Of a stretch of DNA of 64,000 bases, positions 2,911 through 54,335 are shown in pieces; position 1 is the first letter of the stretch; each line of letters begins with the position of its first letter. The notes beneath the pieces were generated by a model that was not told the DNA's origin, made no database searches, and was given only the letters and a program-made list of their open reading frames with translations. The position numbers and the translations under genes were made by a program. The stretch is from the NCBI GenBank assembly GCA_026395595.1, contig JAPLYL010000006.1:12146-76145 (forward strand). Reading direction: 5' to 3'. Origin of the DNA: Candidatus Parcubacteria bacterium (lineage in GTDB: Bacteria > Patescibacteriota > Minisyncoccia > Phycocordibacterales > CAIJYI01).

Positions 2911-3483
2911 ATGAATAATCACAAAGGAAAAAGAAATATACGTGGTGGAGGATTTATTATGGTAGAAATGCTGGTCGCCATATCCCTTATCTTGCTGGTT
3001 CTTCCGGGAGCTCTTTCTATTGCCATGAAATCCATAAGCTTGAGTACCTACCAGAAAGATCAGCTTATTGCGACCTATCTTGCGGAAGAGGGACAAGAAC
3101 TTCTACGAAGCGTTCGCGATAAAAATGTTTTGACTGTTGTACGCGACGGTTCCGGTGCATGGAATACTGGTTTTAGTGGTTGGAGTTGCAACGCTACTGC
3201 CTGCAAAATAGATCTCAGTGAAGCGATAACAGCCGGTGCTGGAAATTTGGAAACTCTGACAAGTGCGCCGAATGCTACGTATCGTCTGTATCTTGATGCA
3301 AACGGTTTTTATACCCATACTTCGGCCGGAAATACGCCGACCCCGTTTTATCGCGGGATATTTATTACGCCCGTCGGAGGTCTCGGAGATCAGGTTTCTG
3401 TTCGGTCAGTTGTTGTTTGGAAAACAACCTTCGGAAGGAAAAAAGTTACTTCATCAGGCTTTCTTGCTTATTGGTTGCGATAA
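2911..3483 (+). CDS. type IV pilin/pseudopilin-like protein
   Basis: N-terminus GGGFIMVEMLVAISLILL, a prepilin motif. Confidence 0.6.
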   Translation: MNNHKGKRNIRGGGFIMVEMLVAISLILLVLPGALSIAMKSISLSTYQKDQLIATYLAEEGQELLRSVRDKNVLTVVRDGSGAWNTGFSGWSCNATACKIDLSEAITAGAGNLETLTSAPNATYRLYLDANGFYTHTSAGNTPTPFYRGIFITPVGGLGDQVSVRSVVVWKTTFGRKKVTSSGFLAYWLR

Positions 3484-4154: not shown

Positions 4155-4547
4155 TTATCCGATAGTGACAATGCTTGAAAAGTGGTAGAATAGCAGACCG
4201 CCAACTATGGTTGCGATTATGATAATAGCAGCAATCCAGTTGAATACCTTGGAGGCAACCCTCTTTGGAGCGCGTCCCCAGTGTTCTTCTCCCGTCGGCA
4301 TCATTTTATAAATGAACGGATAGATCAGGAAGATAAGCAGAGCGGTTATCCAAGGCGTTATCATGGAGAAATGCGCATTGAGCGGTGATGTGTAATAAAA
4401 CATCAAAAACATTCCCGCAATAACGACCCCGATCAGCCAGCCGGCTGTATTATCGTTTTCAAAGCCGTTGGCAAGGCGTTTATACCAAGTCGTTACGTCC
4501 AGCAAACTAAAGGTTTTTTCAAAAAAAATGTTAAGGTACTTCTTCAT
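4155..4547 (-). CDS. hypothetical membrane protein
   Basis: ORF-track ORF 4155..4616; start moved to the internal Met (MKKYLNIFF) that has GGAGG 7 nt upstream; 3-4 TM helices. Confidence 0.5.
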   Translation of the reverse strand: MKKYLNIFFEKTFSLLDVTTWYKRLANGFENDNTAGWLIGVVIAGMFLMFYYTSPLNAHFSMITPWITALLIFLIYPFIYKMMPTGEEHWGRAPKRVASKVFNWIAAIIIIATIVGGLLFYHFSSIVTIG

Positions 4548-5575: not shown

Positions 5576-5721
5576 AAAGGAATAACCAGATAGTAAATTT
5601 TCCCCTTTTTGCTTTTTTCTTATTCCTTTGTTCTTTAACGTCGTCGTTTGACACTCTTTCTTCAATAGTGCATAAATAGATACGGTACTTTGATATATTT
5701 CAGCTTAAAGGAGGTGATAGT

Positions 5722-7087: not shown

Positions 7088-7117
7088 GGATAGCCAGAAA
7101 TGGCTATCCTTTTTTTA
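7088..7117 (+). terminator. rho-independent terminator
   Basis: GGATAGCCA-GAAA-TGGCTATCC hairpin plus TTTTTTT. Confidence 0.75.
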
Positions 7118-7122
7118 TCCGT

Positions 7123-7151
7123 CCGTCATCCTGGACCGAGAGCCGGGATCT
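7123..7151 (+). repeat. conserved hairpin motif CCGTCATCCYGG-loop-CCGGGATCT (copy 1 of 3)
   Basis: Same 5' flank and stem as the copies at 20593-20619 and 21496-21524; a stem C-to-T change becomes a G-U pair. Confidence 0.5.
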
Positions 7152-9185: not shown

Positions 9186-9259
9186 TTGACGGACGAAGAC
9201 CTGTTTTTCAGGAACATTGACTGGTTAATACCTTAACAACAAAAATAACCTTTGTCAAT

Positions 9260-9288
9260 TTGAAACATAAACAAAAGCGGTGTATAAT
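9260..9288 (+). promoter_or_regulatory. sigma70-like promoter of the atp operon (TTGAAA-17-TATAAT); predicts a leaderless or near-leaderless atpB
   Basis: Hexamers at 9260-9265 and 9283-9288; ATG at 9298 lies ~10 nt after the -10 element with no Shine-Dalgarno. Confidence 0.5.
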
Positions 9289-9297
9289 TTTCGCATT

Positions 9298-10026
9298 ATG
9301 CACGTTAGTGTTGCAGCAGAACAAATCTTTTCCGTCTTCGGAATACCTGTCTCAAATACCATGCTTACCGCATGGGTAGCGATTTTTCTTCTGGCTATTT
9401 CTTCGTATTTTGCGACTCGTCACATGAGAAAGATTCCGAGCGGAATTCAAAATTTCTATGAGTGGGCTATTGAATCGCTTTTGGGGTTGATGGAGGGTTT
9501 TATGGGCGACAGAAAACAAACTCTCAAAATTTTCCCGCTCGCCGCCACGTTTTTCTTCTTTATTTTGGTATCCAACTGGATGGGGCTTTTGCCCGGTTTC
9601 GGAAGCATCGGTCTTTTTGAAGAAGGAAATCTCATCCCGTTTTTCCGAAGCGCGACCGCCGATTTGAATACCACGCTTGCTTTTGCCATGATTTCGGTGA
9701 TTATTATTCAGATATCCGGCGTTATGGCGCTCGGATTTTTTCATTACGGAAAAAAGTTCATCAATTTCAGCAGCCCCATCAATTTCTTCGTCGGACTTCT
9801 TGAGCTTATTTCAGAATTTGCGAAAATCATTTCTTTTTCGTTCCGTCTTTTCGGAAGCGTTTTTGCCGGCGAAGTATTGTTGACCATTATCACCGGACTT
9901 GTCCCGTATGTCGTCCCCCTGCCATTTCTCGGGCTTGAGCTCTTCTTTGGAGGAATTCAAGCTCTCGTTTTTGTCTTGCTGACCGTCGTATTCATCAAGA
10001 TAGCCACGACTGAAATGGCTCACTGA
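9298..10026 (+). CDS. atpB: F0F1 ATP synthase subunit a
   Basis: FRLFGSVFAGEVLL motif (essential Arg region); multi-TM; track ORF starts at GTG 9280, ATG 9298 preferred. Confidence 0.8.
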   Translation: MHVSVAAEQIFSVFGIPVSNTMLTAWVAIFLLAISSYFATRHMRKIPSGIQNFYEWAIESLLGLMEGFMGDRKQTLKIFPLAATFFFFILVSNWMGLLPGFGSIGLFEEGNLIPFFRSATADLNTTLAFAMISVIIIQISGVMALGFFHYGKKFINFSSPINFFVGLLELISEFAKIISFSFRLFGSVFAGEVLLTIITGLVPYVVPLPFLGLELFFGGIQALVFVLLTVVFIKIATTEMAH

Positions 10027-10122
10027 TGCATTTCCGGAGGAAATGCCATCTGACACAGAGAGTGAAGCGAACGATGTTTAAATAGTTTATAAAATTATAA
10101 GTAATAGATAATAATAAATAAT

Positions 10123-10338
10123 ATGGAATTAAAATTTGTAGGTATCGGATTGGCAATTGGTCTTGCTTCTATTGCCGCAGGTTTGGGAATTGGAAAAATC
10201 GTTACTCAAGCCATTGAATCAACAGGAAGAAATCCTGAAGCTCACGGAAAGATCTTCAACATGATGATCTTGGGCGCCGCCTTGACCGAAGCGCTCGCGA
10301 TTTACGCGCTCGTTTTGTCATTCATGATGCTCAAATAG
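10123..10338 (+). CDS. atpE: F0F1 ATP synthase subunit c
   Basis: 71-aa two-helix proteolipid with a conserved carboxylate (LTEALAIYALV). Confidence 0.85.
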   Translation: MELKFVGIGLAIGLASIAAGLGIGKIVTQAIESTGRNPEAHGKIFNMMILGAALTEALAIYALVLSFMMLK

Positions 10339-10364
10339 TTTTTAGATTTTTAACGTAATTTTGT

Positions 10365-10856
10365 ATGGAAGCCCTGAAAAATTTCGGAGTGAACTGGCCG
10401 TTTTTTATCGCCCAGCTCGTCAATTTCGCCATATTGTTTTTCTTGCTCAAACGGTTTCTTTACAAACCGATTTTGGACATGCTGGAAAAACGGCGCATAG
10501 AAATTGAAGAAGGTCTCGCTCATGCAAAAAAAATGGGAGAGGACGCCAAGAAATTTGATGCGGAACACGCGGAGCTTTTTCAGAAAGCAAAAAAAGAGGC
10601 TCAGGCTATTGTTGAAAATGCAGTTCATTCAGGAGAAAAGATACGCGACGGCATTATGAAAGATGCAACGGCAAAGTCTCAAGAAATGACGGATGCCGCT
10701 CTGCTCCGTATTGAAGAAGAAAAAAGAAAAATGCTCGGCGAGGTAAAATCCGAGGTATTTGGTCTCGCTTCTTCTCTTGCGGAAAAAATTCTGCGAGAAA
10801 AAATGGATAGTGCTCACGATAAAAAATTCATTGAAGGGCTGATGAACGAAAAATAA
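10365..10856 (+). CDS. atpF: F0F1 ATP synthase subunit b
   Basis: N-terminal TM helix and long charged helix; position in the operon. Confidence 0.75.
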   Translation: MEALKNFGVNWPFFIAQLVNFAILFFLLKRFLYKPILDMLEKRRIEIEEGLAHAKKMGEDAKKFDAEHAELFQKAKKEAQAIVENAVHSGEKIRDGIMKDATAKSQEMTDAALLRIEEEKRKMLGEVKSEVFGLASSLAEKILREKMDSAHDKKFIEGLMNEK

Positions 10857-10869
10857 CAAAAAGTATTCT

Positions 10870-11250
10870 ATGGATAAAACCACCCTTTATGCAAAAGCGT
10901 TTTTGGAAAGTATTCGCGGAATCCCTGCGTCCAAACTTTCGCCTGCACTCAGCCGTTTGAAAGCATTGCTGAAAAAAAAAGAGGAATCCCGTCTCTATCC
11001 GAGGATATTGAAAAAAGTCGTTGCTCTTCTTGAATACGAAAGTAATGCGGTCATTACTTCCGCCCGTCCAATGAACGAATCTCTCCAAACTCAAGTTCTC
11101 AAAAAATTAAAAAAGAATTTTCCCAACATTTCCGACCACGATATTCAGTTTGAAATCAATGAAAAAATAATCGGAGGCGTTTCCATTGCCTATCAAGATT
11201 TTCTCTTTGACGGTACGATTAAAACAGTCCTCAAAAAATTAATAAAATAA
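10870..11250 (+). CDS. atpH: F0F1 ATP synthase subunit delta (OSCP), short form
   Basis: Operon position between b and alpha; C-terminal OSCP-like region; 126 aa is short. Confidence 0.6.
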
Positions 11251-11255
11251 AAACC

Positions 11256-12755
11256 ATGAATAGCGCAAAAAACATAATAGACGCATTAAAGAAAGAGCTT
11301 GAAGGGGGCAAGGTGGAGGCTGGTTTTGAAAACGTCGGCCGTGTCATGGAAATAAAAGACGGCATCGCTCGCGTCTCAGGACTTTCACAGTGCTTCTACT
11401 CTGAGCTTTTGGAGTTTGATAACGGAGTTCTCGGCATGGCTCTCAGTCTTGAAGAAGATTCTGTCGGTGTCATTGTGCTTGGCGACTATTCTCATATTAA
11501 AGAAGGTAGCACTGTAAAAACTACCGGTACTATCGCCAGCATTCCTGTTTCTGACAGCCTGCTTGGTCGTGTCATTGATCCGCTTGGAGCGCCGCAAGAC
11601 GGCAGAGAAAAAATACCTTCTACTAAACGCTATCCGATTGAGAAAATCGCCGCCGGTGTTATTGAAAGAAAGGCCGTATCACAACCGATTGAAACCGGTA
11701 TCCGCGCTATTGATGCGCTCATTCCGATTGGTCGCGGTCAGCGCGAACTCATTATCGGCGACCGCCAGACAGGAAAAACGGCCATCGCTGTTGATACCAT
11801 CATCAACCAGAAAGGAAAGAACGTCATCTGTATTTATGTGGCGATTGGACAGAAAGAATCAAAGACTGCAAAAATTGTCGCCGAATTCAAAAAATCCGGC
11901 GCGATGGAACACACGATTGTCGTAAACGCTTCTGCCGCCATGCCCGCTTCACTCCAGTACATCGCTCCGTTTTCTGCATCAGCTATTGCGGAATACTTTA
12001 TGGATCAAGGCAAAGATGTACTCGTTGTGTACGATGATCTTTCAAAACACGCGTGGTCGTATCGCGAGATTTCGCTTTTGCTTCGCCGTCCCCCAGGCCG
12101 TGAAGCTTACCCGGGAGATGTATTCTATTTGCATTCCCGTTTACTGGAACGATCTGCTCGACGTGACGAAAAATATGGAGGCGGTTCCATTACGGCTCTC
12201 CCAATTATTGAAACCCAGCAAGGCGACGTTTCCGCCTACATTCCGACGAATGTCATTTCCATCACTGACGGACAAATTTATCTGGATACTGACCTCTTTT
12301 ATGCCGGCACGCGCCCCGCGCTCAACGTCGGACTCTCTGTTTCCCGTGTCGGAGCAACCGCTCAAACGAAATCCATGAAGCAATTCGCTGGAAAACTTCG
12401 CCTTGACCTCGCCCAATTCCGCGAGCTCGCCGCCTTTGCTCAATTTGAAGGCGACTTGGATGAAGGCACCAAAAACCAAATCGCCAGAGGTCGTCGCTTA
12501 ACCGAACTCCTGAAACAAGGCCAATACGCGCCTCAATCTCTTCCCAGACAAGTCGTCGGCATCTTCGCCGTAACCCAAGGTTTCGCTGATAATATTGAAC
12601 CCAAAAATGTCTTCGCCTTTGACGAAAACTTATTCCGCTACATGGAAGATAAAGGCAAACACATCATTGCAGAAATTGAAAAAGGAGAAAAATTAAACGA
12701 TGAAACGCAGGAGAAGTTAAAAGAACTTATTTTAGCATTTAAAGAGATGATATAA
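11256..12755 (+). CDS. atpA: F0F1 ATP synthase subunit alpha
   Basis: Walker [12 protein letters not shown]; highly conserved alpha sequence. Confidence 0.95.
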
Positions 12756-12807
12756 AAAAACGCCCTCACATCACAAAAATGGTGTGAGGGCAAGCATAAA
12801 TTAAGAT

Positions 12808-12960
12808 TTAAGGCCTCATAAATTCGCTATGTAGTAGAAATTCAAAGGTTAACCCCAAAACACCAACGATGAGTAATAGCCAATTTAATATGTACACAAA
12901 TTCTGGAAAAATAAAAAGGAAACCAGAAAAAACAATTAGTAAAAGATAAAATTTGCACAT
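12808..12960 (-). CDS. antisense small hydrophobic ORF (50 aa) between atpA and atpG
   Basis: ATG preceded by GGAGGTGG at 4-nt spacing; MCKFYLLLIVFSGFLFIF... single TM; not in ORF track (<60 aa). Confidence 0.3.
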   Translation of the reverse strand: MCKFYLLLIVFSGFLFIFPEFVYILNWLLLIVGVLGLTFEFLLHSEFMRP

Positions 12961-13046
12961 ATTACCACCTCCAACAATGAACTAAAAAACTTATTTAAGT
13001 AAAACATATCATATATAAATAGTCAAGATTTCTTTTTTTAAAAACC

Positions 13047-13952
13047 ATGCCAAGCACACGAGATATTAAACGCCGAATAAAGTTGATCCAAACCACGAGT
13101 CAAATAACTCGGGCTATGGAACTTGTGGCTGCGACGAAGATGAAACGTGCCGAAGCGGAGGCTCGCGGGTCTCAGCCGTATTCTGCTCGTGGACGAAAAA
13201 TTCTGCGCGCTCTTATGGAACACTCCGATACCGATGTTTCTCCTTTTTTGAAAACCAACGAAAAAGGAAAAATTCTTGTGCTTATCATCACTCCCGACCG
13301 CGGTCTCTGCGGCGCTCTCGCCGGTAATGTGGTCAGAGAAGCGAATCTTTTGCTTTCAAAATATGATAAAGAAGAAATCGATGTCATGACCATCGGGAAA
13401 TTGGGCCAAGACACTTTTCGTCGCCAAGGATTTAATATCATCGCTACCGCTACCCACTTAGATTGGAAACCGAAGATTTTTGATATCAGGCCTTTTGCCA
13501 AAATTGCGCTTGACGGATATTTCGCCGAAAAATATCGTCGCGTCTATCTTATTTTTAATCACTTTATCTCCAGCTCTTCCACTCGTCCTGCCATACGATG
13601 GCTTTTTCCGTTCTCTCCCGTCGAGTCCGAAGACGCTGAATTTTTACAAAAAATAGAACCATTCCCGCTCGGGCCAAAAGAAGACACTCATGCCAGCGAA
13701 TCATTTGAATATCTTTTTGAACCATCGCCCGCAAAAGTTCTCCCGTTTATTATCCGCAACCTCGTAGAAATGGAAATGTACCAAGCCCTTCTGGATTCCA
13801 ATGCTTCCGAACATTCCGCCCGCATGATAGCCATGCACTCCGCCACGGAAAATGCCAAAGAACTGGTAGACGACCTCTCTCTCACTTTCAATCAGATGCG
13901 CCAAGAGGGAATAACGAGGGAATTGGCCGAAATTAGCGCAAGTAATGCGTAA
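13047..13952 (+). CDS. atpG: F0F1 ATP synthase subunit gamma
   Basis: N-terminus MPSTRDIKRRIKLIQTTSQITRAMELVAATKMKRAE is canonical gamma. Confidence 0.9.
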   Translation: MPSTRDIKRRIKLIQTTSQITRAMELVAATKMKRAEAEARGSQPYSARGRKILRALMEHSDTDVSPFLKTNEKGKILVLIITPDRGLCGALAGNVVREANLLLSKYDKEEIDVMTIGKLGQDTFRRQGFNIIATATHLDWKPKIFDIRPFAKIALDGYFAEKYRRVYLIFNHFISSSSTRPAIRWLFPFSPVESEDAEFLQKIEPFPLGPKEDTHASESFEYLFEPSPAKVLPFIIRNLVEMEMYQALLDSNASEHSARMIAMHSATENAKELVDDLSLTFNQMRQEGITRELAEISASNA

Positions 13953-13954
13953 AA

Positions 13955-14365
13955 ATGATTTACGATTTAAGATTTATGAATGACGACGACAAAAAAATAC
14001 GGGAATTTACTGATTTGAATGCTTGGAAAGAATCTCATAAAATTGTATTGCTAACATACGCAATAACAAAAACATTCCCAAAAACAGAAACATTCGGTTT
14101 ACAAAGTCAGATGCAACGAGCAGTAATTTCAATAACATCAAATATTGCAGAAGGATTTGGAAGACAAGGTTATAAAGAAAAAATACAATTTTATTACATG
14201 GCGCAAGGTTCGTTAACGGAATTAAAAAATCAATATATTGCCGCAAAAGATATAGGATATATGGATGTAAAAGAGTATGAAAAAGTATTGGATCAGATGA
14301 ATATAGCCCATAGAGTCCTTCAGGGTTTAATAACAAAATCAAAAACTTTCATAAATCATAAATAG
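13955..14365 (+). CDS. four-helix-bundle protein (23S rRNA intervening-sequence protein family, TIGR02436/PF05635-like), inserted between atpG and atpD
   Basis: AWKESHKIVLLTYAITKTFPKTETFGLQSQMQRAVISITSNIAEGFGR...QFYYMAQGSLTELKNQ matches the family signature; alternative start ATG 13976. Confidence 0.8.
   Translation: MIYDLRFMNDDDKKIREFTDLNAWKESHKIVLLTYAITKTFPKTETFGLQSQMQRAVISITSNIAEGFGRQGYKEKIQFYYMAQGSLTELKNQYIAAKDIGYMDVKEYEKVLDQMNIAHRVLQGLITKSKTFINHK
13957..13979 (+). repeat. tandem heptamers GATTTAC/GATTTAA/GATTTAT, the inverted partner of 14380-14411
   Basis: Its reverse complement CATAAATCTTAAATCGTAAATC matches the downstream CTTAAATCATAAATC (14 of 15). Confidence 0.55.
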
Positions 14366-14379
14366 TCGTCTATATTCCT

Positions 14380-15782
<1,403 letters not shown>

Positions 15783-15833
15783 GGTTTTAGGTTTTAGATT
15801 GACGACGTTGACAAATAAGCACTGAGCGGAATC

Positions 15834-15948
15834 AAGGGCAGTCCTTGAGGAGGAGTGTAGCGAAGCGAAACGACGGGGCGACCTGAATTTTAACGACCGG
15901 AGGGAGTATAAAATTGGAAGTACTCTTGTGGTGAAAGAACTGCCCTTG
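15834..15948 (+). repeat. diverged copy (C) of a structured repeat element; 9-bp closing stem CAAGGGCAG/CTGCCCTTG
   Basis: Core GAGGAGGAGTGTAGCGAAGCGAAACGACGGGG homologous to copies at 51859-51960 and 61525-61626; flanked by an 11-bp direct repeat GTTTTAGATTG (15791-15801 and 16018-16028). Confidence 0.5.
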
Positions 15949-16009
15949 GTGCAGCGGGCTTAAAAAAATCGCCCCCGCCGTAAAAACGGAAAAAAAAAGA
16001 TTTATTTAG

Positions 16010-16165
16010 TTACTTTTGTTTTAGATTGTTAGCCCCCACTTTGTAAGAGTAACTCCGTAAATAACCAAAAAAGATTACCGAGACGATAACACCTGCCACT
16101 AAGGAATACATATACAAAGATGACAAGCCGAGAAGAACAATGATTGCAATTAAACTTTCTTTCAT
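16010..16165 (-). CDS. small hydrophobic ORF (51 aa)
   Basis: GGAG 8 nt upstream of ATG; MKESLIAIIVLLGLSSLYMYSLVAGVIVSVIFFGY...; not in ORF track. Confidence 0.25.
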   Translation of the reverse strand: MKESLIAIIVLLGLSSLYMYSLVAGVIVSVIFFGYLRSYSYKVGANNLKQK

Positions 16166-16271
16166 GACACATTCTCCAATTAATTAATGAAAAAACTCCT
16201 GTAAAAAATCCTAACGCCATATATATAATTTATTATTACTTGTCAAGTATCTTAATAGAATCTAAAAACGA

Positions 16272-16676
16272 ATGAAAAAAGATTTTCAAAAATGGCATGC
16301 ACGAAAAGAAAAGCTGAACGAAAAAGAAAATCGTTTGTTTTTTCATGTTCGCGAAATATGGTATTGTTCGCTTGGCGCAAATGTCGGTTTTGAAACAGAC
16401 GGAAAGGGCGAGGATTTTTTGCGTCCCGTCGTTATCGTGAGAAAGTTTAATAATGAAATTTTTTGGGCTGTTCCGCTTACCAAATCAAAAAAACCGATTC
16501 CTAAAAAAACTGAAAAATATTATTTTGCTTTTTCTTTTGTTCCGGAAGTAAAAAGTTTGGCGGTGTTGTCGCAGTTACGGCTTGTTGATGCGTCTCGTTT
16601 GGCTCGTCATGTCGGAGAAATAAACGAAGCGGAGTTTGGGGAATTAACAAAAAAGCTCAAGGCATTGCTGCCATGA
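16272..16676 (+). CDS. MazF/PemK-family endoribonuclease toxin-like protein, inserted between atpD and atpC
   Basis: REIWYCSLGANVGFETDGKGEDFLRPVVIVRKFNNEIFWAVPLTKSKK... aligns with the PemK/MazF pattern GEIWLVSLDPTAGHEQQGTRPVLIV...VVPVTS; C-terminal LVDASRLARHVGEINEAEFGEL matches too. Confidence 0.6.
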   Translation: MKKDFQKWHARKEKLNEKENRLFFHVREIWYCSLGANVGFETDGKGEDFLRPVVIVRKFNNEIFWAVPLTKSKKPIPKKTEKYYFAFSFVPEVKSLAVLSQLRLVDASRLARHVGEINEAEFGELTKKLKALLP

Positions 16677-16809
16677 ACCTTTTTGTTTTTTTCCTCTGTC
16701 TTGCGACAGAGTAGGGCCGAAGCCATTTGTACGTTTATTATAAGCGAATCAGCTATAAAAGTCAAATTGTTTCGTTTATATTTTTAATATCCTAAATCTT
16801 AAATCATTC

Positions 16810-17244
16810 ATGAAAAACTTTCGCCTAAAAATAATAACGCAAGAAGAAGTGCTTTTGGAAACGGAAGTGGAATCTTTATATGTAACGACTATAGACGGCG
16901 ACATCAATGTTCTTCCTCACCACACACCATATGTCAGCGTGCTTAAACCATCCGAAGTCATTATCAAAAAAGACGGCAAAGAAGAATCATTTGCCTGCAC
17001 GGGCGGAATTCTGGAAGTTACTCCCGAGAAAGTGGTTATCTTGGCTGATTCCGCCGTGCGTACTGATCAAATAGATGAAGAGGAAGCTTTGAAAGTAAAA
17101 GAACGAGCCGAAAGCATCATGGCGGAGAAACTGGAAAACCGAGAAAACGCCGAAGCCATGCTCGCTCTGGAAAAAGCCCTCCTTCATCTCCGTGTCGCCC
17201 AAAAAAGAAAACGACATATCCCGCATTCATCTGAAATGAAATAA
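16810..17244 (+). CDS. atpC: F0F1 ATP synthase subunit epsilon
   Basis: N-terminal beta-sandwich region (ILEVTPEKVVILADSAVRTDQIDEEEA) and C-terminal helices; terminator after. Confidence 0.8.
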   Translation: MKNFRLKIITQEEVLLETEVESLYVTTIDGDINVLPHHTPYVSVLKPSEVIIKKDGKEESFACTGGILEVTPEKVVILADSAVRTDQIDEEEALKVKERAESIMAEKLENRENAEAMLALEKALLHLRVAQKRKRHIPHSSEMK

Positions 17245-17278
17245 AAAAAGCCTCCGATTATATCGGAGGCTTTTACTT
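17245..17278 (+). terminator. rho-independent terminator ending the atp operon
   Basis: GCCTCCGAT-TATA-ATCGGAGGC plus TTTTACTT. Confidence 0.8.
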
Positions 17279-17286
17279 ATCGCTGG

Positions 17287-17412
17287 TTATCTATCTTTTT
17301 TCCCGAAAATTTCTTGGCGAATTACTTCATATATGACCATAGCAAATACTCCGCCGAAAAAAATAATAAGAAGTATCCAGCCCGGATCTTTCATTAACAG
17401 TTCAGATAACAT
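17287..17412 (-). CDS. small membrane peptide ORF (41 aa)
   Basis: AAGGAGAAAAAAC-ATG; MLSELLMKDPGWILLIIFFGGVFAMVIYEV...; not in ORF track. Confidence 0.3.
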   Translation of the reverse strand: MLSELLMKDPGWILLIIFFGGVFAMVIYEVIRQEIFGKKDR

Positions 17413-17537
17413 GTTTTTTCTCCTTGTTGAGATGTAAGTCAAAACCCGTTTTTATAATACCAATTTATCACATTATTGTCAAATTTACCGCAACAATAAA
17501 AACGCCCGCGGTATACCGTGGGCGTTTGACCTGGAAA

Positions 17538-20953: not shown

Positions 20954-21495
20954 TTCAGAAAGTTTTTATACCATTGAAGGGAAGTCTGCTCAAAAACGAG
21001 CAGGCTTTTTTCCAGGCTCTATTTGAAAAAGAAGAATGGTAACGTCGTAAAAGATATATTGTACGACGTTGCCAAATAAAAAATAAAACCCTGATTGGGC
21101 CGATAAGACCGCTCCCCCGATCTATCATACCGGTTGGGTGACCGGTCAGACAGAATGAAAATAAAATTATATTTTGCATAAAAAATTTACAAAATATTTT
21201 TCCGAAAAAATTCCCCACCCTGTATGCTTCCGTATATGTTTTGAGTAGTATCTTAATCCTCTCAATTACCTCAAAAACCGACTTTCCTGATCTTGCTCTT
21301 TTGAGGGATTTTTGCCCCCCCCTCCGATTTTGCGTATAAAAACACATTATATCATATTCCGTCAAGTTTTCGTTTAGGACGTAAAAATGCTCGCCTCGTA
21401 TCCAAAAACCGAGCGGTAGGTATATACCTTTAAAATCACTCCACGAGCCGACTTTGTTTGCATCAAAGAGGACGAAAGTTTCATTACGCTATCTT

Positions 21496-21524
21496 TCCGT
21501 CATCCCGGCCCGCGAGCCGGGATC
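21496..21524 (+). repeat. conserved hairpin motif CCGTCATCCCGGC-CCGCGA-GCCGGGATCT (copy 3 of 3)
   Basis: Perfect 8-bp stem ATCCCGGC/GCCGGGAT; same flanks as the other two copies. Confidence 0.5.
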
Positions 21525-21683
21525 TATGTTTACCTGCGATGTAAATATAAAACTTTTTTAATCGCCGGAGCGGGTTTATAACCCGATCCGAAACATTTGT
21601 ATAACAAAATACGCTTTGTATTCTTTTTGTCGTAAAAATATAATGGTCGCCGAATTCAAATCCGGCGACCGTTCTTTCTCTCT

Positions 21684-25456: not shown

Positions 25457-26164
25457 TTATTCCGGTAATATCACCGAACCGATCTTTTCATTAAAAGCGT
25501 CAAAGATCGCATTCATAGCGATGACTTTTATAATAAGTTTATGTTCTTTTGCGAGAGCGACCGCGGAAGCATCGGCAACTTTCAGATTTTGTTCCAGCAC
25601 CTCAATGGATTTCATGCGGTCAATCTTTTTGGCGTTCGGGTCGGTTTTTGGGTCAGCAGTATAAATGCCGTCAACGCCGTTCTTCGCCATAACGAGCATA
25701 TCGGCGCCGATTTCCAGTGAACGCTGAACCGCATTAGAATCGGTGGAAAAATAAGCGGCTCCGAGACCGGCGGCAAAAATAACGATTCTTCCTTCGCTCA
25801 AATGTTCCTCCACTTCCGCCTGCATCATTTCTGCGCACACACGGCGCATGCCGATAGCTGATGACACCCGAGCCTCCATTCCCTGACTTTCAAAGTAATC
25901 CCGAAGCACGAGGGAGTTTTGAACCGTACCGAGCATTCCTATGTAGTCGGCGGTCATTCTTTTTACTCCGGGAAGACCGGAAAGGTCCCGCCCGCGGAAG
26001 AGGTTCCCTCCTCCGACTACGATTCCAATCTCCACTTTTTCCGCTTGTAATTTTTTGATTTGGTCGGCAATGTTTTTGAACATTTCCTCTGAATATTTTT
26101 GGTCATTCGCCTTCCCAGAAAGCGCTTCTCCCGAGAGTTTTAAAAGAATTCTTTTGTTTTTCAT
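25457..26164 (-). CDS. pyrH: UMP kinase
   Basis: ILLKLSGEAL and GIVVGGGNLFRG motifs. Confidence 0.9.
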   Translation of the reverse strand: MKNKRILLKLSGEALSGKANDQKYSEEMFKNIADQIKKLQAEKVEIGIVVGGGNLFRGRDLSGLPGVKRMTADYIGMLGTVQNSLVLRDYFESQGMEARVSSAIGMRRVCAEMMQAEVEEHLSEGRIVIFAAGLGAAYFSTDSNAVQRSLEIGADMLVMAKNGVDGIYTADPKTDPNAKKIDRMKSIEVLEQNLKVADASAVALAKEHKLIIKVIAMNAIFDAFNEKIGSVILPE

Positions 26165-35505: not shown

Positions 35506-35615
35506 AAGTACCCCTATTCTACTTGAAAGAACACCGAGAGTCAAAAACTTGACAAATTAGACAAATAAGAGTATACCACAAGCTGTAATTGAACTTTGAA
35601 AAGAGGAAAGAAAAA

Positions 35616-36218
35616 ATGAACATAAATAAAAATGCGGTTTTTTCAATGATACTGACCGGTACCATTTACGCAGGCGCGTATGCAATGAGTATCCATATTG
35701 GAATTCTCTGGGTATTGGCGATCTTTCTCGTTTGTTATCCCTATAAAATAGGCGAAAATGTTTACTCGCTTTTTGGCGGGTTCTCCGATAAGAATCTCTA
35801 CTCGCTCTTTGGGGTTTATCAAAACGCCGAAGGTGATGCGTTGCAAGTCATAGGTATAACGCTGTATCAAAATGCCGGAGGTGATGCGTTGCAAGTCGTT
35901 GGCGTAACCTTGTATCAAAATGCCGGAGGTAGTGCGGGGCAAGGCATAGGTATAACTTTGTATCAAAATGCAGCCGGTGATGCAGTGCAAATTGTCGGGA
36001 TAGTGATGTGTCAGAAAGCCGGAAGGGATGCCGAGGAGGTTATTGGGATAGTGCTGTATCAGAAGGCTGACGTGGATGCGATACAGAAGTTAAGTATAAC
36101 ATTGTATCAAAATGCTGGCTGGGATGCGGCGCAATACCTGGGTATAACCTTATACCGAACTTTCAAAACGCAAACATCCCCGTGGTGCAGTATCGTGTGC
36201 GTATCCAAACAAAAATAA
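35616..36218 (+). CDS. membrane-anchored tandem-repeat protein (7 x 16-aa YQNAGGDALQVIGITL-like repeats)
   Basis: AAGAGGAAAG Shine-Dalgarno before ATG; N-terminal TM; 48-bp DNA tandem repeats. Confidence 0.6.
   Translation: MNINKNAVFSMILTGTIYAGAYAMSIHIGILWVLAIFLVCYPYKIGENVYSLFGGFSDKNLYSLFGVYQNAEGDALQVIGITLYQNAGGDALQVVGVTLYQNAGGSAGQGIGITLYQNAAGDAVQIVGIVMCQKAGRDAEEVIGIVLYQKADVDAIQKLSITLYQNAGWDAAQYLGITLYRTFKTQTSPWCSIVCVSKQK
35810..36170 (+). repeat. 48-bp tandem repeats (~7 units) within the CDS
   Basis: Repeated GTATCAAAATGCCGGAGGTGATGCGTTGCAAGTC...-like units. Confidence 0.7.
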
Positions 36219-39249: not shown

Positions 39250-39325
39250 AATAAAAATCCAAATGTCCAATGCTAAAATTTGGACATTTTGAATTTTGTC
39301 ATTTTATTGGAAATTTGAAATTTGA
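39250..39325. repeat. ~60-bp duplicated regulatory-region element (copy 1) upstream of rseP
   Basis: TCCAATGCTAAAATTTGGACATTTTGAATTTTGTCATTTTATTGGAAATTTGAAATT is near-identical to the copy at 39975-40045; it has CCAAT/ATTGG arms and sits beside a putative TTGACA promoter. Confidence 0.55.
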
Positions 39326-39344: not shown

Positions 39345-39896
39345 TTATTCTGCTATTTCCTTTCCTTTTCTTTCTGACATTTCTTCCAGTTTTGCATTTG
39401 CCTGATCAACAAATTTTTGCATTTCTTCTTTTAAGCTGAATTTTTCGTCTTCGGGAATCTCTCCTTCTTTCTCCAGCATCTGAATTTCACTCCATACGTC
39501 GTCTCTTTCTGAACGAACGGAAACGCGGGCATGTTCGAGCTTTTCTCTCGTGACCTTCAAAAGAGCAGCCCTTCGTTCCGCGGTGAGTTCCGGAAAAAAC
39601 ACCCGTACACCCATAGCATCGGAAGAAACACTCAATCCGAGATTTGCCTCGCCGATAGCTTTTTCTATTCCCTTAACCTGCCCTTTATCCCAAGGAGCAA
39701 CGCGTATCGTTCTCGCATCTTCAATGGAAATACTCGCGACATGTTTAATAGGGGTTCTTGTTCCGTAAGAATCAAGATAAATGCTATCCAAAATAGCCGG
39801 GGTTGCCCGACCGGTACGAACGCTCGTATATTCGGTGCTCAGCCATTCTTGAATCCCTTCCAGTTTCTCTTTAAATGACGAAAAATCGTAGGACAT
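39345..39896 (-). CDS. frr: ribosome recycling factor
   Basis: Canonical RRF sequence (RTGRATPAILDSI..., VRSERDD...). Confidence 0.9.
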   Translation of the reverse strand: MSYDFSSFKEKLEGIQEWLSTEYTSVRTGRATPAILDSIYLDSYGTRTPIKHVASISIEDARTIRVAPWDKGQVKGIEKAIGEANLGLSVSSDAMGVRVFFPELTAERRAALLKVTREKLEHARVSVRSERDDVWSEIQMLEKEGEIPEDEKFSLKEEMQKFVDQANAKLEEMSERKGKEIAE

Positions 39897-39974: not shown

Positions 39975-40045
39975 AAATTCCCAATATCCAATTTCAAATA
40001 TCCAATGATAAAATTTAGACATTTTGAATTTTGTCATTTTGTTGG
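39975..40045. repeat. ~60-bp duplicated regulatory-region element (copy 2) upstream of frr
   Basis: TCCAATGATAAAATTTAGACATTTTGAATTTTGTCATTTTGTTGGAAATTGGAAATT. Confidence 0.55.
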
Positions 40046-40055
40046 AAATTGGAAA

Positions 40056-40769
40056 TTACTTTGATTGCTTCGGTGCAATCAAAGCCAAATGTTCCAGCAT
40101 CATTTTGAATGAAGGCGCTTTACCGTGCGCGTATCTCCGATAGGAAAGCGCCAATTCCAGCGTTCGTATTTCTTCTTTTGTTCGTTTCCCCGGCGTTCCC
40201 TTGTTATAAAAAAACCGAGTAATGTCTTCAATGAGCCTTTCCGAACGGCTGACGTCTTTTTCGTCCTTGGCAATCTTAAGAATAAAAGCGAGACGCTCGG
40301 CATAGGGCATTTTCAAAAATTCCGCCGCTTCGCCGAACGTTTCCTTTTCTCCGCTTTTTTGATGTTCCACCAATACGATACGGGAAAGAAGCGTCGGCAA
40401 GAAAAATTGAGAGGAGTGAGAAAGAATGAAAAAGTGAGTATCCGCAGTCGGTTCTTCAAAAATTTTGAGTAAAGAATTCTGCGCTTCCGTCGTGAAAGAA
40501 TTAGCAATAACGACGAATATCTTTTTCCCTCCTTCAGCAAAAGAATGTCGCGATTGCATTTCCTTGAGCGCTCGCCCGTCGTCAATGCCGAAAGAAATAA
40601 ACTCCTGCTCCGAAAAATCCGGATTCCCTGTCGTTGATATTTGAAACTCGCCCTCAAGAAAATCCCGAAGCGCCGTCTTCATAAGATCGGGATCCCCCTC
40701 AATCAAAAAAGCATGGTGAAAAAACCCGTTTTCAAAATTCCCTATTTTTTGTTTCCAAGATGAGTTCAT
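40056..40769 (-). CDS. holB: DNA polymerase III delta-prime subunit-like AAA+ protein
   Basis: HAFLIEG, box NSLLKIFEEP, LLSRI sensor motif. Confidence 0.55.
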   Translation of the reverse strand: MNSSWKQKIGNFENGFFHHAFLIEGDPDLMKTALRDFLEGEFQISTTGNPDFSEQEFISFGIDDGRALKEMQSRHSFAEGGKKIFVVIANSFTTEAQNSLLKIFEEPTADTHFFILSHSSQFFLPTLLSRIVLVEHQKSGEKETFGEAAEFLKMPYAERLAFILKIAKDEKDVSRSERLIEDITRFFYNKGTPGKRTKEEIRTLELALSYRRYAHGKAPSFKMMLEHLALIAPKQSK

Positions 40770-47031: not shown

Positions 47032-47414
47032 ATAATTTTCCGATAAAGAATAATAACTATTTGATTATATCATATATGCTATACAGAGCAAGAAAGAAGG
47101 GTAACTCCTCGTCGCCGTTTCGGGGTTGCACCCCGAAACGAAACATTTGGATAACACAATAAAGTTCCGCTTAAAAATTAAAATTTATTTTGTCACACAA
47201 ATATTTCGGACCGAGGTACAACCTCAGTCCGGCAATAAATATAGTTATATTTTATAAGGAATGAGCAGTTACAAAGAAGGAATTTGACAAAAGAGTTTTC
47301 CAAAGGTAGATTGTGCTTAGAAAAGCGCTGCTTTTACACTTGTAGTTTGGCCCTGTTATCGTATAATGAAAGACCGATATCAAGAATTTATTTTTACTCT
47401 ATTTAGCAACCATC

Positions 47415-51858: not shown

Positions 51859-51960
51859 TTAAAGAAATCACAGACGGAGGTCTTTCCTTAAAGAGGAACG
51901 CAGCGAAGCGTAGTGACGGGGAAAGGAGAGACCTCGGGTAGTGATTTCGGTTAGAACAAT
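51859..51960 (+). repeat. structured repeat element, copy A
   Basis: ~90% identical to copy B (61525-61626); outer stem GAAATCAC/GTGATTTC; inner 11-bp stem GGTCTTTCCTT/AAGGAGAGACC; loop AAGAGGAACGCAGCGAAGCGTAGTGACGGGG. Confidence 0.6.
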
Positions 51961-51989: not shown

Positions 51990-53210
51990 TTATCCAAACA
52001 CTTTCTTCACCTCCAGAATCCCGGCAATAAGTGCATCAATATCTTCTTTGTCATTATAAAAATATATGCTCGCTCTCGTCACCGCGTACACCCCCATGGA
52101 TTTTACGAGCGGTTGCGCGCAGTGATGTCCGGCTCTCGTCGCCACTCCGTGTCTCGCCAAAATTTCGCTCGTGTCATGCGGATGAGCTCCGTCAACCAAG
52201 AAAGAGATAACGCCGATATTCTTTTCCGGATTCATCTGCGAATATATCGTTACGCCTTCAACCTTTTCCAATTCAACAAGGGCGTACCTTGTAATTTCTT
52301 GAATATGATTTTCTATATTTTTCACTCCGATTTTTTCCAGATACTCGCAGGCAACGCCGAGACCGATGGCGCCGGCGATATTGGGTGTTCCCGCTTCAAA
52401 TTTTGCGGGAGCGAGCGCATAGGAAGCCTCTTCTTCAAAAACTTCTTCCACCATTCCTCCGCCAAAATTCCCGGGAGTCAGTTTGTCCAAGATCTCTTTC
52501 TTTCCGTACAGTACGCCGATTCCTGTCGGCCCGCACATTTTATGCCCGGAGAAAAAGAGAAAATCGCATCCGATTTCTTTTACATCAAGCGGAATATGCC
52601 CCGCCGCTTGTGTGGCATCTATCAAAGAATACGCTCCGACTTTTTTCGCCAAGTCCGACAGTAATTTCATATTGTTGATCGTTCCCGTCACATTGGAAAC
52701 GCCGACGCAAGCGACCAGTTTTGTTTTTTTCGTAATGAATTTCTCCGCCTCGTTGTAATCCAATTCTTTTCCGGACAGCATTGGGATTATCCGCAATCGC
52801 AGTTTTTTTCGTTTCGCCAATTCCTGCAGCGGAACCAAAACCGAATGGTGCTCCATCATCGTCGTTACGATTTCATCGCCTTCTTGAAAGACACCGGAAT
52901 TTTCCAGCGAATAGATAAGAAGATTGGAAGAAGCGGTTGCATTGGCGGTAAAAATAATTTCCCTCTCATTGGCATTGATAAATTTCACTACTTTCGTCCG
53001 CGCTTCGTCATATGCTTTGCTCGCTCTTTGAGAGAGCGGATACAGTCCGCGATTCACATTTGCGCGGTAAGAATGGTAGTACTCAGTTTCCGATTCCACC
53101 ACAACATCCGGCGTCTGAGACGTCGCTGAATTATCCAAATATACCAAATCTTTCTGCTCCTCGTTTTGAAAGAGAAAAAAGTCCTTTTTGAGAGTTTTTG
53201 TATCAAGCAT
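51990..53210 (-). CDS. sufS: cysteine desulfurase (class V aminotransferase, SufS-like)
   Basis: PLP lysine region FFSGHKMCGPTGIGVL; C-terminal catalytic Cys region RAGHHCAQP. Confidence 0.8.
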   Translation of the reverse strand: MLDTKTLKKDFFLFQNEEQKDLVYLDNSATSQTPDVVVESETEYYHSYRANVNRGLYPLSQRASKAYDEARTKVVKFINANEREIIFTANATASSNLLIYSLENSGVFQEGDEIVTTMMEHHSVLVPLQELAKRKKLRLRIIPMLSGKELDYNEAEKFITKKTKLVACVGVSNVTGTINNMKLLSDLAKKVGAYSLIDATQAAGHIPLDVKEIGCDFLFFSGHKMCGPTGIGVLYGKKEILDKLTPGNFGGGMVEEVFEEEASYALAPAKFEAGTPNIAGAIGLGVACEYLEKIGVKNIENHIQEITRYALVELEKVEGVTIYSQMNPEKNIGVISFLVDGAHPHDTSEILARHGVATRAGHHCAQPLVKSMGVYAVTRASIYFYNDKEDIDALIAGILEVKKVFG

Positions 53211-53240: not shown

Positions 53241-54335
53241 TTAATCAAAGCGATACATCGGCGAGGAAAGTTTTTTGTTGATGGGTTCCAGAAAGGCGGT
53301 CTGCCATTTTGGCGGGAGTTTTTCCAGAGGTTTGGCGAGAAAACCGGAAAGCAGCATCACTTGCGCGCGATAAGGCGCGATACCGCGGAGCGCGGGATAA
53401 AAATAATCACTGTCACGGAGATGGCTTATGGAAAGCGCGTGGGAAGAACTGGATTCCGAACTTCCGATATCAAGCGACGGGATAGCGTCAATTTCTGCGC
53501 CCGAACTGGCAATAAGAAAACGTCCGTCCTGTCTGCCGGTAGCTCCGACAACACCCTCACAAATATCTGAAAGCGCGCGGTATACGATTTTTCCGCCGCC
53601 TCCCGCAATTCCCCGCGCAAAAATATGCGAAGCGGTGTTATCGGCTTCGTGTCTTGAAGTATTATAAATATCAAAATTTTCTCCTGAACAAAGCGCCATG
53701 TCATAAACATACGATTCCGCTCCGTTGCCTGCCAGAGAATCTTCGGTTATAGATCGTATCATTTCCGAACCCGAAAAAAGTCCATACCATTCCATTTTTC
53801 CGTTTTCCAAAACGCGAGAAGAACGGTGAGAAAAATACGCGCTTCCGGCAGAAATATCCGTCGTCCCCGCAAAAGTAACGCTCGCGCCTTTTTCAGCGAG
53901 AACAAAGATATTCCGTCCAAAGAAAACAGGGTTTTTATTCGTCGCCGTTTCAAAAATATGCAAAACAGAATTTTCTTTCGCCGCAACAAAAATGGTGTCC
54001 GAACCGCTTTTTTCAATAATCGTAGAAAGTTCAAAAGAAACCTCCGCCCCTTTGTCTGCGATTATCACCAGCCCGTCGCTAAAATTCTCAAAAGATTTGG
54101 CAAAATAGTTGTCGGTAAAAACAGGTTTTTTTCTCTCTCTTAATACCAAAATAATATCCGGATCTTCCACCGCTTTTTTCCACGGCAAAACACGAAGACC
54201 CGAAGTTTCTTCGTACTGATACTGAACCGCGTTCTCCTCAAACTTTTGTTCAAGTGCCGCCGCAGTTGCAAAAATACCGAGTCCATATGAACCGGTTTTC
54301 GCAAATTCTTTAGCTGCCCGTGTTTTTATTGACAT
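53241..54335 (-). CDS. sufD: Fe-S cluster assembly protein SufD-like
   Basis: C-terminal SufB/D family region (ENFDIY...LRGIAPYRAQVMLLSGF); context with sufB and sufS. Confidence 0.6.
   Translation of the reverse strand: MSIKTRAAKEFAKTGSYGLGIFATAAALEQKFEENAVQYQYEETSGLRVLPWKKAVEDPDIILVLRERKKPVFTDNYFAKSFENFSDGLVIIADKGAEVSFELSTIIEKSGSDTIFVAAKENSVLHIFETATNKNPVFFGRNIFVLAEKGASVTFAGTTDISAGSAYFSHRSSRVLENGKMEWYGLFSGSEMIRSITEDSLAGNGAESYVYDMALCSGENFDIYNTSRHEADNTASHIFARGIAGGGGKIVYRALSDICEGVVGATGRQDGRFLIASSGAEIDAIPSLDIGSSESSSSHALSISHLRDSDYFYPALRGIAPYRAQVMLLSGFLAKPLEKLPPKWQTAFLEPINKKLSSPMYRFD

Follow-up and report, generated by a model that had tools for sequence, protein, structure and literature searches.

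Spacers of an ATP synthase operon in a Parcubacteria bacterium as probable turnover slots for small self-contained modules

Several described systems come close to what is found between the genes of the ATP synthase (atp) operon examined here. In the type III toxin–antitoxin system ToxIN, the toxin has a Kid/MazF-like fold and its antitoxin is an RNA, not a protein. The toxin of a type I system is not necessarily a membrane peptide, as SymE illustrates, and the Correia elements of Neisseria are cut by RNase III. The menE-menC genes of Staphylococcus aureus are an example of a noncontiguous operon or excludon (PMC11034616). The intervening sequence (IVS) in the 23S rRNA of Coxiella is 428 nt long, has a 28-bp stem and an S23p open reading frame (ORF), and is cut by RNase III (PMC4990558), and ORFs of the family PF05635 are reported from rRNA insertions of the Candidate Phyla Radiation (CPR) (PMC11270868). 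In this context, we describe a stretch of 64,000 nucleotides from Candidatus Parcubacteria bacterium (assembly GCA_026395595.1, contig JAPLYL010000006.1, positions 12,146 to 76,145 of the forward strand), called the window below, whose atp operon holds a four-helix-bundle gene, a MazF-type toxin-like gene with a predicted convergent small RNA, antisense micro-ORFs and hairpin repeats in three enlarged spacers. The host is an ultra-small CPR/Paceibacteria bacterium, with nearest relatives annotated as Nomurabacteria or Paceibacterota.

The operon itself is complete. An earlier note, made from the letters of this DNA, had taken the atp genes to be intact and co-oriented, and the ORF listing together with Pfam places all eight genes of atpB-E-F-H-A-G-D-C, intact, on the plus strand: atpB (9280-10026, PF00119), atpE (10123-10338, PF00137), atpF (10365-10856, PF00430), atpH (10870-11250, PF00213), atpA (11256-12755, PF00006), atpG (13047-13952, PF00231, 270 bits), atpD (14412-15782, PF00006 and PF02874) and atpC (16810-17244, PF02823 and PF00401). 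From atpB to atpA (9280-12755) the operon is tight, with spacers of 5-96 bp. The enlarged spacers follow: 291 bp between atpA and atpG (12756-13046), 459 bp between atpG and atpD (13953-14411) and 1027 bp between atpD and atpC (15783-16809), the same three being 4-38 bp in the most compact relatives. On a rough gene map, the median spacer across the window is about 55 bp, and its two largest non-coding stretches between co-oriented genes, of 291 and 489 bp, both lie in the atp operon.

What these spacers are is best seen from related operons. Scans of genomes and metagenomes with AtpG gave 18 loci from about 13 distinct operons, with AtpG 84-94% identical (loci carry our labels, L001 and so on). 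In these relatives, the atpA-atpG spacer is as short as 4 bp in L001 and as long as 1057 bp in L013, and the atpG-atpD spacer measures between 16 bp (L007) and about 1660 bp (L018), while the atpD-atpC spacer runs from 35 bp (L004) to the 1027 bp of the window; the L004 operon is compact throughout. The cargo includes Phd with ParE (L001, L009 and L013), Phd with RelE and a transglutaminase-like gene (L015), HicB-like with HicA (L007), a nucleotidyltransferase (L011), an antisense SemiSWEET (L013) and a 297-aa protein of unknown kind (L018). The four-helix-bundle gene that fills the atpG-atpD slot of the window sits at the same slot in the independent assemblies L005, L009 and L010 (86-90% amino acid identity). 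Its carriers do not form a single clade in the atpG tree, and L001, the closest relative of the window, has Phd-ParE in its place. Given its presence at the same slot in three of 12 relatives, the gene is not a private recent insertion. The toxin-like gene has a homologue (89.6% amino acid identity) in another independent assembly, L003, where it lies in the atpG-atpD slot and not, as in the window, in the atpD-atpC slot. Members of a 67-aa antisense family are found in four genomes, at the slots G-D, A-G, F-H and A-G.

The boundaries of the cargo tell a similar story of replacement. Terminal inverted repeats are significant in 17 of 42 atp spacers across operons. Some of these are cargo-free hairpins (atpD-atpC of L001, atpA-atpG of L004 and others) and some bear cargo (the four-helix-bundle gene four times, and atpD-atpC of L002, L003 and L005). 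Directly 3' of the same atpD stop codon, the heptamer families are unrelated between genomes, which indicates that hairpins were replaced, not inherited. The comparison with relatives that the earlier note proposed thus gives no single fixed gene order, with cargo varying by genome. Because the spacers vary and their cargo differs, insertion and turnover are well supported: the expansion of the spacers is real, and they are best described as slots in which modules of at least four types turn over. The earlier idea of insertion into a landing pad stands, but such a pad is not peculiar to atp. In other CPR genomes, the same cassettes lie in the operons prfB-ftsEX, pheST, dnaKJ, ftsAZ and liv, which makes atp a hot spot and not the sole target.

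In the atpG-atpD slot, the module is an IVS-like element of 446 nt (13955-14400, plus strand), made of heptamer arms with an ORF in the loop. The ORF (13976-14365, plus strand) encodes a four-helix-bundle protein of 129 aa and matches PF05635 with 117.1 bits (cut-off 33.8; profile positions 2-105 of 106) and TIGR02436 with 110.8 bits (cut-off 24). In a sequence search, the protein matches the solved structure PDB 2GSC (XCC0516) over residues 9-119 (E 5e-18), and an identical protein (P0121) carries the NCBI annotation 'four helix bundle protein'. The true start is probably the second ATG, at 13976, because the NCBI annotation and the relatives L005 and L010 start there. The arms (13955-13990 on the left, 14365-14400 on the right) are 36 nt long and 83% complementary, consist of period-7 repeats (GATTTAA / TCATAAA) and score 21 against 7.0 +/- 1.2 in shuffles (z 11.7), so that the earlier call of a four-helix-bundle gene between inverted heptamer repeats holds for both the gene and its flanks. 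Start and stop codons fall within or at the edge of the arms. The closing stem is present in the minimum free energy and centroid folds of 13945-14415, and in L005 and L009 the arms have changed in a compensatory way, from GATTTAAG/CTTAAATC to GATTCAAG/CTTGAATC, with a T-to-C in the left arm paired with an A-to-G in the right arm.

The element lacks its own promoter and begins 2 nt past the stop codon of atpG, which suggests that it is probably co-transcribed with the operon. Homologues 69-72% identical in other CPR genomes are co-oriented and tightly packed within operons (between an F420-ligase-like gene and murJ, between ftsA-ftsZ and a trxB-like gene, between livH and livM, and just upstream of a giant gene). 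Heptamer inverted repeats of the type GATTYAAG/GATTTATG surround homologues in four unrelated operons (z 3.5-12.2). Set against the features of a 23S rRNA IVS, the element has the closing stem and the PF05635 ORF in the loop, and its location is not an rRNA helix; at gathering thresholds, the single Rfam match in the whole window is a tRNA, with no rRNA. The window holds no further paralogue of the four-helix-bundle gene or of the PemK gene described below.

Several relatives preserve what may be later stages of such modules. In L013, the atpG-atpD spacer (4324-4353) is the left heptamer arm alone, joined straight to the atpD start (ATGAAT), and looks like the expected remnant of a microhomology deletion from the ATGAA of the four-helix-bundle gene to the ATGAA of atpD. 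The four-helix-bundle gene of L009 (2228-2686) has a 1-nt deletion in the A-run after GACGACGAC, which shifts the frame from the usual start; a pseudogene or a sequencing error is possible. In L002, a C-terminal fragment of an antitoxin remains as a decayed remnant.

The atpD-atpC spacer is a composite of at least four modules rather than a single insertion. A repeat copy, an antisense ORF and a MazF/PemK-like gene had been read there before, within about 1 kb, and all are found in its 1027 bp as a hairpin repeat, an antisense 51-aa ORF and a PF02452 gene. The last of these (16272-16676, plus strand) is a toxin-like gene of the PemK/MazF fold, 134 aa long, here called PemK. It scores 38.5 bits with PF02452 (cut-off 23.1; profile positions 4-109 of 109), and with the PF05635/TIGR02436 matches given above (117.1/110.8 bits) the profile searches suggested earlier put both inserted genes in their expected families. 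An AlphaFold model built from 39 homologues has a predicted local distance difference test (pLDDT) score of 71, and the best 50 Foldseek matches to it in the PDB are all of the MazF family (MazF, YdcE, MoxT), with probability 1.00 and template modelling (TM) scores of 0.53-0.76. Across the 39 homologues, R51-P52 is invariant and T70 near-invariant; by motif resemblance rather than superposition, R51 and T70 may correspond to the catalytic R29 and T52 of E. coli MazF. The protein has an N-terminal extension of about 25 aa. NCBIfam has no model for PemK or for the micro-ORFs. PemK has 340 homologues, and the taxon names among the matches listed are all CPR or Patescibacteria.

The setting of the gene is the same in each of the eight loci compared: the cassette lies co-oriented directly behind another gene, a housekeeping gene in seven of the eight, and no MazE/PemI-like gene adjoins PemK, upstream or downstream, in any of them. 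The upstream gene is atpD in the window (not immediately, with other modules between), atpG in L003 (73 nt), atpC in L038 (6 nt), prfB in L021 (3 nt), an acetyltransferase gene that itself follows prfB in L019 (16 nt), pheS in L023 (162 nt), dnaJ in L036 (22 nt) and, in L035, a gene for an unknown 197-aa protein followed by an NYN-domain gene (108 nt). In several loci PemK has no promoter region of its own, with a spacer to the upstream gene of 3-22 nt. The cassettes of the window and L003 are homologous over a stretch that starts about 3 nt upstream of the ATG and reaches the motif AAAAGTCAA, about 95 nt beyond the stop; it includes a 50-nt 3' core that is 100% identical, against a proportion of differing synonymous sites (pS) of 0.40 in the ORF.

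That 3' end also carries a putative convergent antisense small-RNA gene (16636-16765, minus strand), identified by its promoter and a covariance model. A promoter scan gives TTGACT-17-TATAAT at 16765-16737 on the minus strand, with 11 of 12 positions matching, and the predicted RNA of about 100 nt (16736-16636) covers the last 41 nt of the PemK ORF. It folds into three hairpins: one with a C(UUCG)G loop, one with a GNRA loop, and a long stem with A/U flanks that resembles a terminator. The region folds better on the minus strand (-38.6 kcal/mol, z -6.0) than on the plus strand (-31.4 kcal/mol, z -2.6), and 15 G-U cells of the RNA become A-C mismatches if read on the plus strand. In all eight PemK loci, the covariance model places the RNA on the minus strand (79-122 bits), each time with the 41-nt overlap of the ORF. 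When the sequences are aligned independently with MAFFT, 98.5% of cells pair and six pairs have compensatory changes; 0 of 500 shuffles reach this level, and slid controls collapse. In seven of the eight loci the promoter retains its hexamers (TTGACW-17-TATAAT-like) at a distance of 17 nt, and the spacer sequence is variable. An Rfam search of the RNA with E up to 10 returns only a miRNA-model match far below threshold (16645-16688), which we take as noise. A small protein antisense to the PemK 3' end was considered and rejected, as its ORF is not conserved in L003 and in L023 its start lies upstream of the promoter. As a separate observation, L036 has, upstream of the RNA at 2960-3005, a second copy of its first hairpin (AAATGGCTTCGGCCC) that takes the place of the normal promoter spacing and may be a local duplication. 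We infer that PemK is most likely a toxin under the control of a cis-antisense RNA; the nearest parallels are type I systems whose RNAs overlap the 3' end and type III ToxIN, but such a cassette is outside the type I and type III classes as now defined.

Given these toxin families, the slots could be a small defence or stress island, with modules kept for abortive infection and housed in a strong operon for the sake of expression. The cargo of relatives is rich in ParE/RelE, HicA and MazF-fold toxins, with a nucleotidyltransferase besides, and the sole PemK match in a phage collection is a distant relative, a 32% identical MazF in Campylobacter prophages. Against this, none of the products compared with PADLOC (the four-helix-bundle protein, PemK, those of the micro-ORFs and three further cargo proteins from relatives) has a match, the same phage collection holds no homologue of the four-helix-bundle protein, and the modules are single and scattered over many housekeeping operons, not clustered. 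We therefore consider a defence island unlikely, and keep to the view of the spacers as turnover slots.

A third kind of cargo faces backward. As reported earlier, the atpA-atpG spacer has a hairpin and an antisense 50-aa hydrophobic ORF with a strong Shine-Dalgarno (SD) sequence, and all three were recovered. This ORF, micro1 (12808-12960, minus strand; grand average of hydropathy (GRAVY) 1.52), has the SD sequence GGAGGTGG at 12966-12973, 5 nt before the ATG, and a promoter of TTGACT (13026-13021), a 17-nt spacer and TTTACT. The hairpin (12761-12790, minus strand) adjoins the atpA stop, folds with -20 kcal/mol (z -5.5) and is followed by U7 on the minus strand only, which marks it as the terminator of micro1 itself. 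In the atpD-atpC spacer, micro2 (16010-16165, minus strand; 51 aa, hydrophobic, GRAVY 0.88) has the promoter TTGACA (16246-16241), a 17-nt spacer and TATATG, an SD of GGAGA and a partly decayed terminator (15972-15992, minus strand) that keeps CCGTTTTTACGGCGGGGGCG and T7 and folds weakly (z -1.2). Both agree with what is expected of type-I-toxin-like genes: a hydrophobic product under about 60 aa with its own promoter, SD sequence and terminator. For neither did the analysis turn up a small-RNA gene dedicated to it. Beyond the operon, micro3 (17287-17442, minus strand; 51 aa, hydrophobic, promoter TTGACA-17-TATTAT) converges on atpC, with which it has a perfect 13-bp bidirectional terminator in common (17246-17274). 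It is of the module type of micro1 and micro2 but is kept in L001, with 90.7% amino acid identity and a ratio of nonsynonymous to synonymous substitution rates (dN/dS) of 0.10.

The atp spacers of this clade hold 14 modules of this antisense class. In every one of them a -35 box of CTTGACA lies 61-81 nt ahead of the start, separated by 17 nt from a TATACT-like -10 box, and all 14 end in a GC hairpin (often CCGTTTTTACGGCGGGGGCG) followed by T5-8, which typically adjoins the stop codon of the upstream host gene. A GGAGG-type SD is present in 13 and a hydrophobic ORF of 43-96 aa (GRAVY >0.6) in 12. By sequence, the T-run of a module is an A-run on the sense strand, so the hairpin would terminate antisense transcription only, and such one-way terminators favour read-through of atp. 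The 67-aa family, found in different slots of four genomes with dN/dS of 0.2-0.48, argues that such modules encode proteins and move. Their translation signals are also unlike those of the host, in that the modules almost always carry GGAGG and only 6 of 52 window genes have an SD-like motif. Several window genes have a TATAAT box 7-12 nt upstream of the start codon, a pattern that suggests widespread leaderless or SD-less initiation in the host; the starts sampled in this survey include 18044, 25457-26164 (minus), 51990-53210 (minus), 53241-54335 (minus), 54701-56044 (minus) and 63245.

The fourth module type is a dispersed hairpin repeat. Copy C (15822-15957, plus strand; 85.1 bits with covariance model R1) has a 14-bp stem, a conserved loop AAGGAGGA...GACGGGGAAAG and an extra internal segment of about 55 nt. 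The covariance model, built from nine copies that include the three window sites, recovers exactly those three in the window: 15822-15957, 51868-51944 and 61533-61609. The latter two are 92% identical, with the loop AAGGAGGA...GACGGGG; one of them lies between minus-strand genes, so orientation with respect to transcription is not fixed. Other copies are in L002 (two), L007/L008, L013 and L023. In the stem, 6 of 14 pairs have changed on both sides and 95% of cells are paired, a level found in 0 of 500 shuffles. Hammerhead, twister and pistol ribozymes were considered for the repeat and set aside, since their core motifs are absent and Rfam is silent; with E up to 10, Rfam gives terminator look-alikes near 17240 in 12700-17400 and leaves the repeat unmatched. 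Folded whole, the 218-nt left part of this spacer does no better than shuffles (z -0.74), and only the 14-bp repeat stem is supported within it. At its left edge lies a half-hairpin (15783-15807, no strand assigned) of heptamers GGTTTTAGGTTTTAG, then GACGACG, where TRF reports period 7 at 15782-15797. It has no matching right arm in this genome (z 0.6), and its GGTTTTAG family forms complete hairpins at the atpD-atpC slot of L001 and L003.

Other repeats of the window and its relatives are worth recording. Heptamer-hairpin loop ends repeatedly bear ACGACGAC or GTCGTCGT (60214-60299 and 5604-5650; L001 9908-10000; L004 7916-8000), and the ACGACGAC/GTCGTCGT motif also occurs at the inner ends of cargo-holding arms. 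Two 68-nt hairpin repeats of 7-8-nt units, 90% identical (39255-39322 and 39990-40057), stand on either side of frr (39345-39896, minus strand), so cargo-free hairpins bracket housekeeping genes elsewhere in the genome too. A palindrome of about 130 nt, resembling a miniature inverted-repeat transposable element, occurs at about 47109-47237 and 21560-21680, in L002 (3575-3700) and L003 (7790-7930), and in the atpD-atpC gaps of L010 and L011; in it, GTCGCCGG closes a GC hairpin pair (TTCGGGGTTGCACCCCGAA) around an AT-rich centre. A GC-rich hairpin repeat, CGTCATCC(T/C)GG...CCGGGATC, has two to three window copies (7116-7151, 21490-21525 and also about 20590). Finally, six tandem 48-nt (16-codon) repeats, progressively diverging, lie at 35817-36152 within the ORF 35589-36218 (plus strand), which suggests a repeat protein.

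The cargo is under purifying selection and has a composition of its own. The dN/dS ratio is 0.05-0.16 for PemK and 0.06-0.08 for the four-helix-bundle gene. GC content at third codon positions is 0.22 in the four-helix-bundle gene, 0.27 in micro1, 0.33 in PemK and 0.38 in micro2, against 0.38-0.52 in the atp genes. In the same genome pairs, the pS of the cargo is lower than that of the flanking atp genes: 0.40 for PemK against 0.60-0.74 between the window and L003, and 0.39 for the four-helix-bundle gene against 0.58-0.61 between the window and L005. These lower values fit a later exchange of the cargo.

Such figures bear on a plainer account, according to which the expansions are neutral debris, the spacers of essential genes being merely where random insertions survive and the ORFs and hairpins having no function. 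Decay is certainly to be seen (the antitoxin fragment of L002, the left arm of L013, the micro2 terminator and the 1-nt deletion of L009), and micro1 and micro2 have no homologues. Debris would not be expected to show the low dN/dS of PemK, the four-helix-bundle gene and the 67-aa family, nor a PemK 3' core conserved at 100% beside a 40% difference at synonymous sites of the ORF, covariation in two RNA or DNA structures, or promoter hexamers kept while their spacers vary. We regard neutral debris as distinctly unlikely. Selection on the cargo would also be expected if the inserts were domesticated parts of the ATP synthase, with hairpins setting subunit ratios by processing and peptides acting as AtpI/AtpZ-like assembly or regulatory factors. 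The small ORFs are hydrophobic and lie beside genes for a membrane complex, and relatives have cargo-free hairpins between atp genes as well. But the content varies at an AtpG identity of 84-94%, down to the fully compact operon of L004; the same cassettes occur in unrelated operons; and the small ORFs face backward, with micro1 and micro2 being orphans. Domestication is thus very improbable. An error of metagenome assembly or binning, in which repeats led to chimeric joins, is hardly credible as the source of the arrangement, for all the repeats of this region and its origin in a metagenome-assembled genome. The exact PemK and four-helix-bundle proteins are recorded on contigs of one and the same length, which agrees with a single NCBI contig; the exact micro2 ORF is in an independent assembly; three other metagenome contigs have the four-helix-bundle gene at the same slot; and eight loci carry PemK cassettes.

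Returning to turnover, we hold it fairly probable that the spacers of this atp operon tolerate insertions and serve as slots of fast turnover for small self-contained modules, which leave the operon unbroken. In such a scheme, and by analogy with 23S rRNA IVSs, RNase III would probably cut the four-helix-bundle stem and release atpBEFHAG, the cargo and atpDC as separate RNAs. Transcription of atp would read through the one-way antisense terminators, and the atp mRNA, fully complementary to the mRNA of the mini-genes, might silence a type-I-toxin-like peptide during expression of the operon, in the manner of a noncontiguous operon. The MazF-fold gene would borrow the transcription of the host operon, and the convergent structured RNA over its 3' end would most likely act as antitoxin or repressor. 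The dispersed hairpin repeat sits beside these modules. The modules, which are under purifying selection, would be gained, lost or swapped between close relatives.

A number of points weigh against this scheme or limit it. Read-through, cleavage by RNase III, toxicity, neutralisation and the means of movement are what we infer, not what we observe. The analysis turned up neither a recombinase nor a target-site duplication nor any other machinery for transfer, and the search for an RNase III signature (ERLEFLGD-like) in the genome fragments searched was negative and uninformative. The hairpin at the end of PemK has a U-run on the plus strand too, and might attenuate or partly terminate plus-strand transcription into atpC. 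The atpA-atpG and atpD-atpC spacers have no significant bounding inverted repeats (z -1.4 and 0.6), which limits 'cargo in a hairpin loop' within the window to the four-helix-bundle element; the broader reading of all three gaps as hairpin-loop cargo was rejected for these two. Among 1.84 billion cluster representatives, micro1 has no homologues (one spurious hydrophobic match), and the only database match of micro2 is the same sequence on an independent 1.3-kb assembly, so that it is solely the surrounding signals that speak for either being a protein. The PADLOC null for the cargo also counts here, and AT-biased codon use, not recent transfer, may partly explain the low pS of the cargo.

Two wider proposals may be put forward, jointly and only tentatively. 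First, a MazF-type toxin with a cis-antisense RNA may form an undescribed toxin–antitoxin architecture, spreading as a promoterless cassette of about 500 bp that lives off the transcription of operons essential to the host (atp, pheST, prfB-ftsEX, dnaKJ). Second, IVSs may be general hairpin-bounded PF05635 cassettes of any highly transcribed rRNA or mRNA, tolerated through trimming by RNase III. In the literature that we searched, such cassettes are not described for CPR operons. If the turnover reading is true, accessory genes turn over even within the best-conserved bioenergetic and housekeeping operons of the streamlined genomes of CPR bacteria, where the integrity of the operon would be kept by one-way terminators, hairpin-bounded cargo and promoterless co-oriented cassettes. 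The mobility of IVSs and the role of their ORF have been debated for about thirty years, and this clade offers filled, empty, swapped and half-deleted sites. The MazF-fold toxin with its antisense RNA is a candidate for a new toxin–antitoxin pairing. For annotation, spacers of this kind should not be called non-coding or taken as operon ends.

How do these modules compare with the systems already described? The four-helix-bundle element resembles the 23S rRNA IVSs of Coxiella burnetii and Leptospira in its ORF family and its length (446 against 428 nt), in its terminal inverted repeats with the ORF in the loop (36 nt here, 28 bp there), in being AT-rich relative to the host and in its patchy distribution (PMC4990558, PMC11270868). 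Unlike them, it lies between protein genes of an mRNA operon and its arms are 7-nt tandem repeats, and its excision by RNase III is here a prediction.

The PemK cassette recalls three types of toxin–antitoxin system. Like type II MazEF/PemIK, it has the PF02452 match and the predicted MazF fold, with an invariant Arg-Pro and a near-invariant Thr that may correspond to the catalytic residues, but it has no MazE/PemI neighbour, often no promoter region, and the N-terminal extension of about 25 aa. Like TxpA/RatA and BsrG/SR4 of Bacillus subtilis and like SymE/SymR, it has a predicted convergent structured RNA with its own promoter over the 3' end of the toxin mRNA, whereas its toxin is a predicted soluble MazF-fold protein of 134 aa, not a small hydrophobic peptide. 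ToxIN differs in its RNA: ToxI is an array of tandem repeats that precedes the toxin gene on its strand and that the toxin itself processes, while here a single convergent antisense gene is present and a repeat scan finds no tandem array adjoining PemK.

With noncontiguous operons, the locus has in common genes on the opposite strand between co-oriented ones (micro1 between atpA and atpG, micro2 and the antisense RNA between atpD and atpC). The embedded genes here are tiny orphan hydrophobic ORFs of a swappable module family, not conserved partners. As for the hairpins, no target-site duplication was seen at them. They recall the repetitive extragenic palindromes and bacterial interspersed mosaic elements (REP/BIME), the enterobacterial repetitive intergenic consensus (ERIC) and the Correia elements of Neisseria, which are likewise short inverted repeats in intercistronic spacers that form hairpins in mRNA; unlike these, their stems are tandem 7-8-nt repeats of several families, and their loops may hold whole genes.

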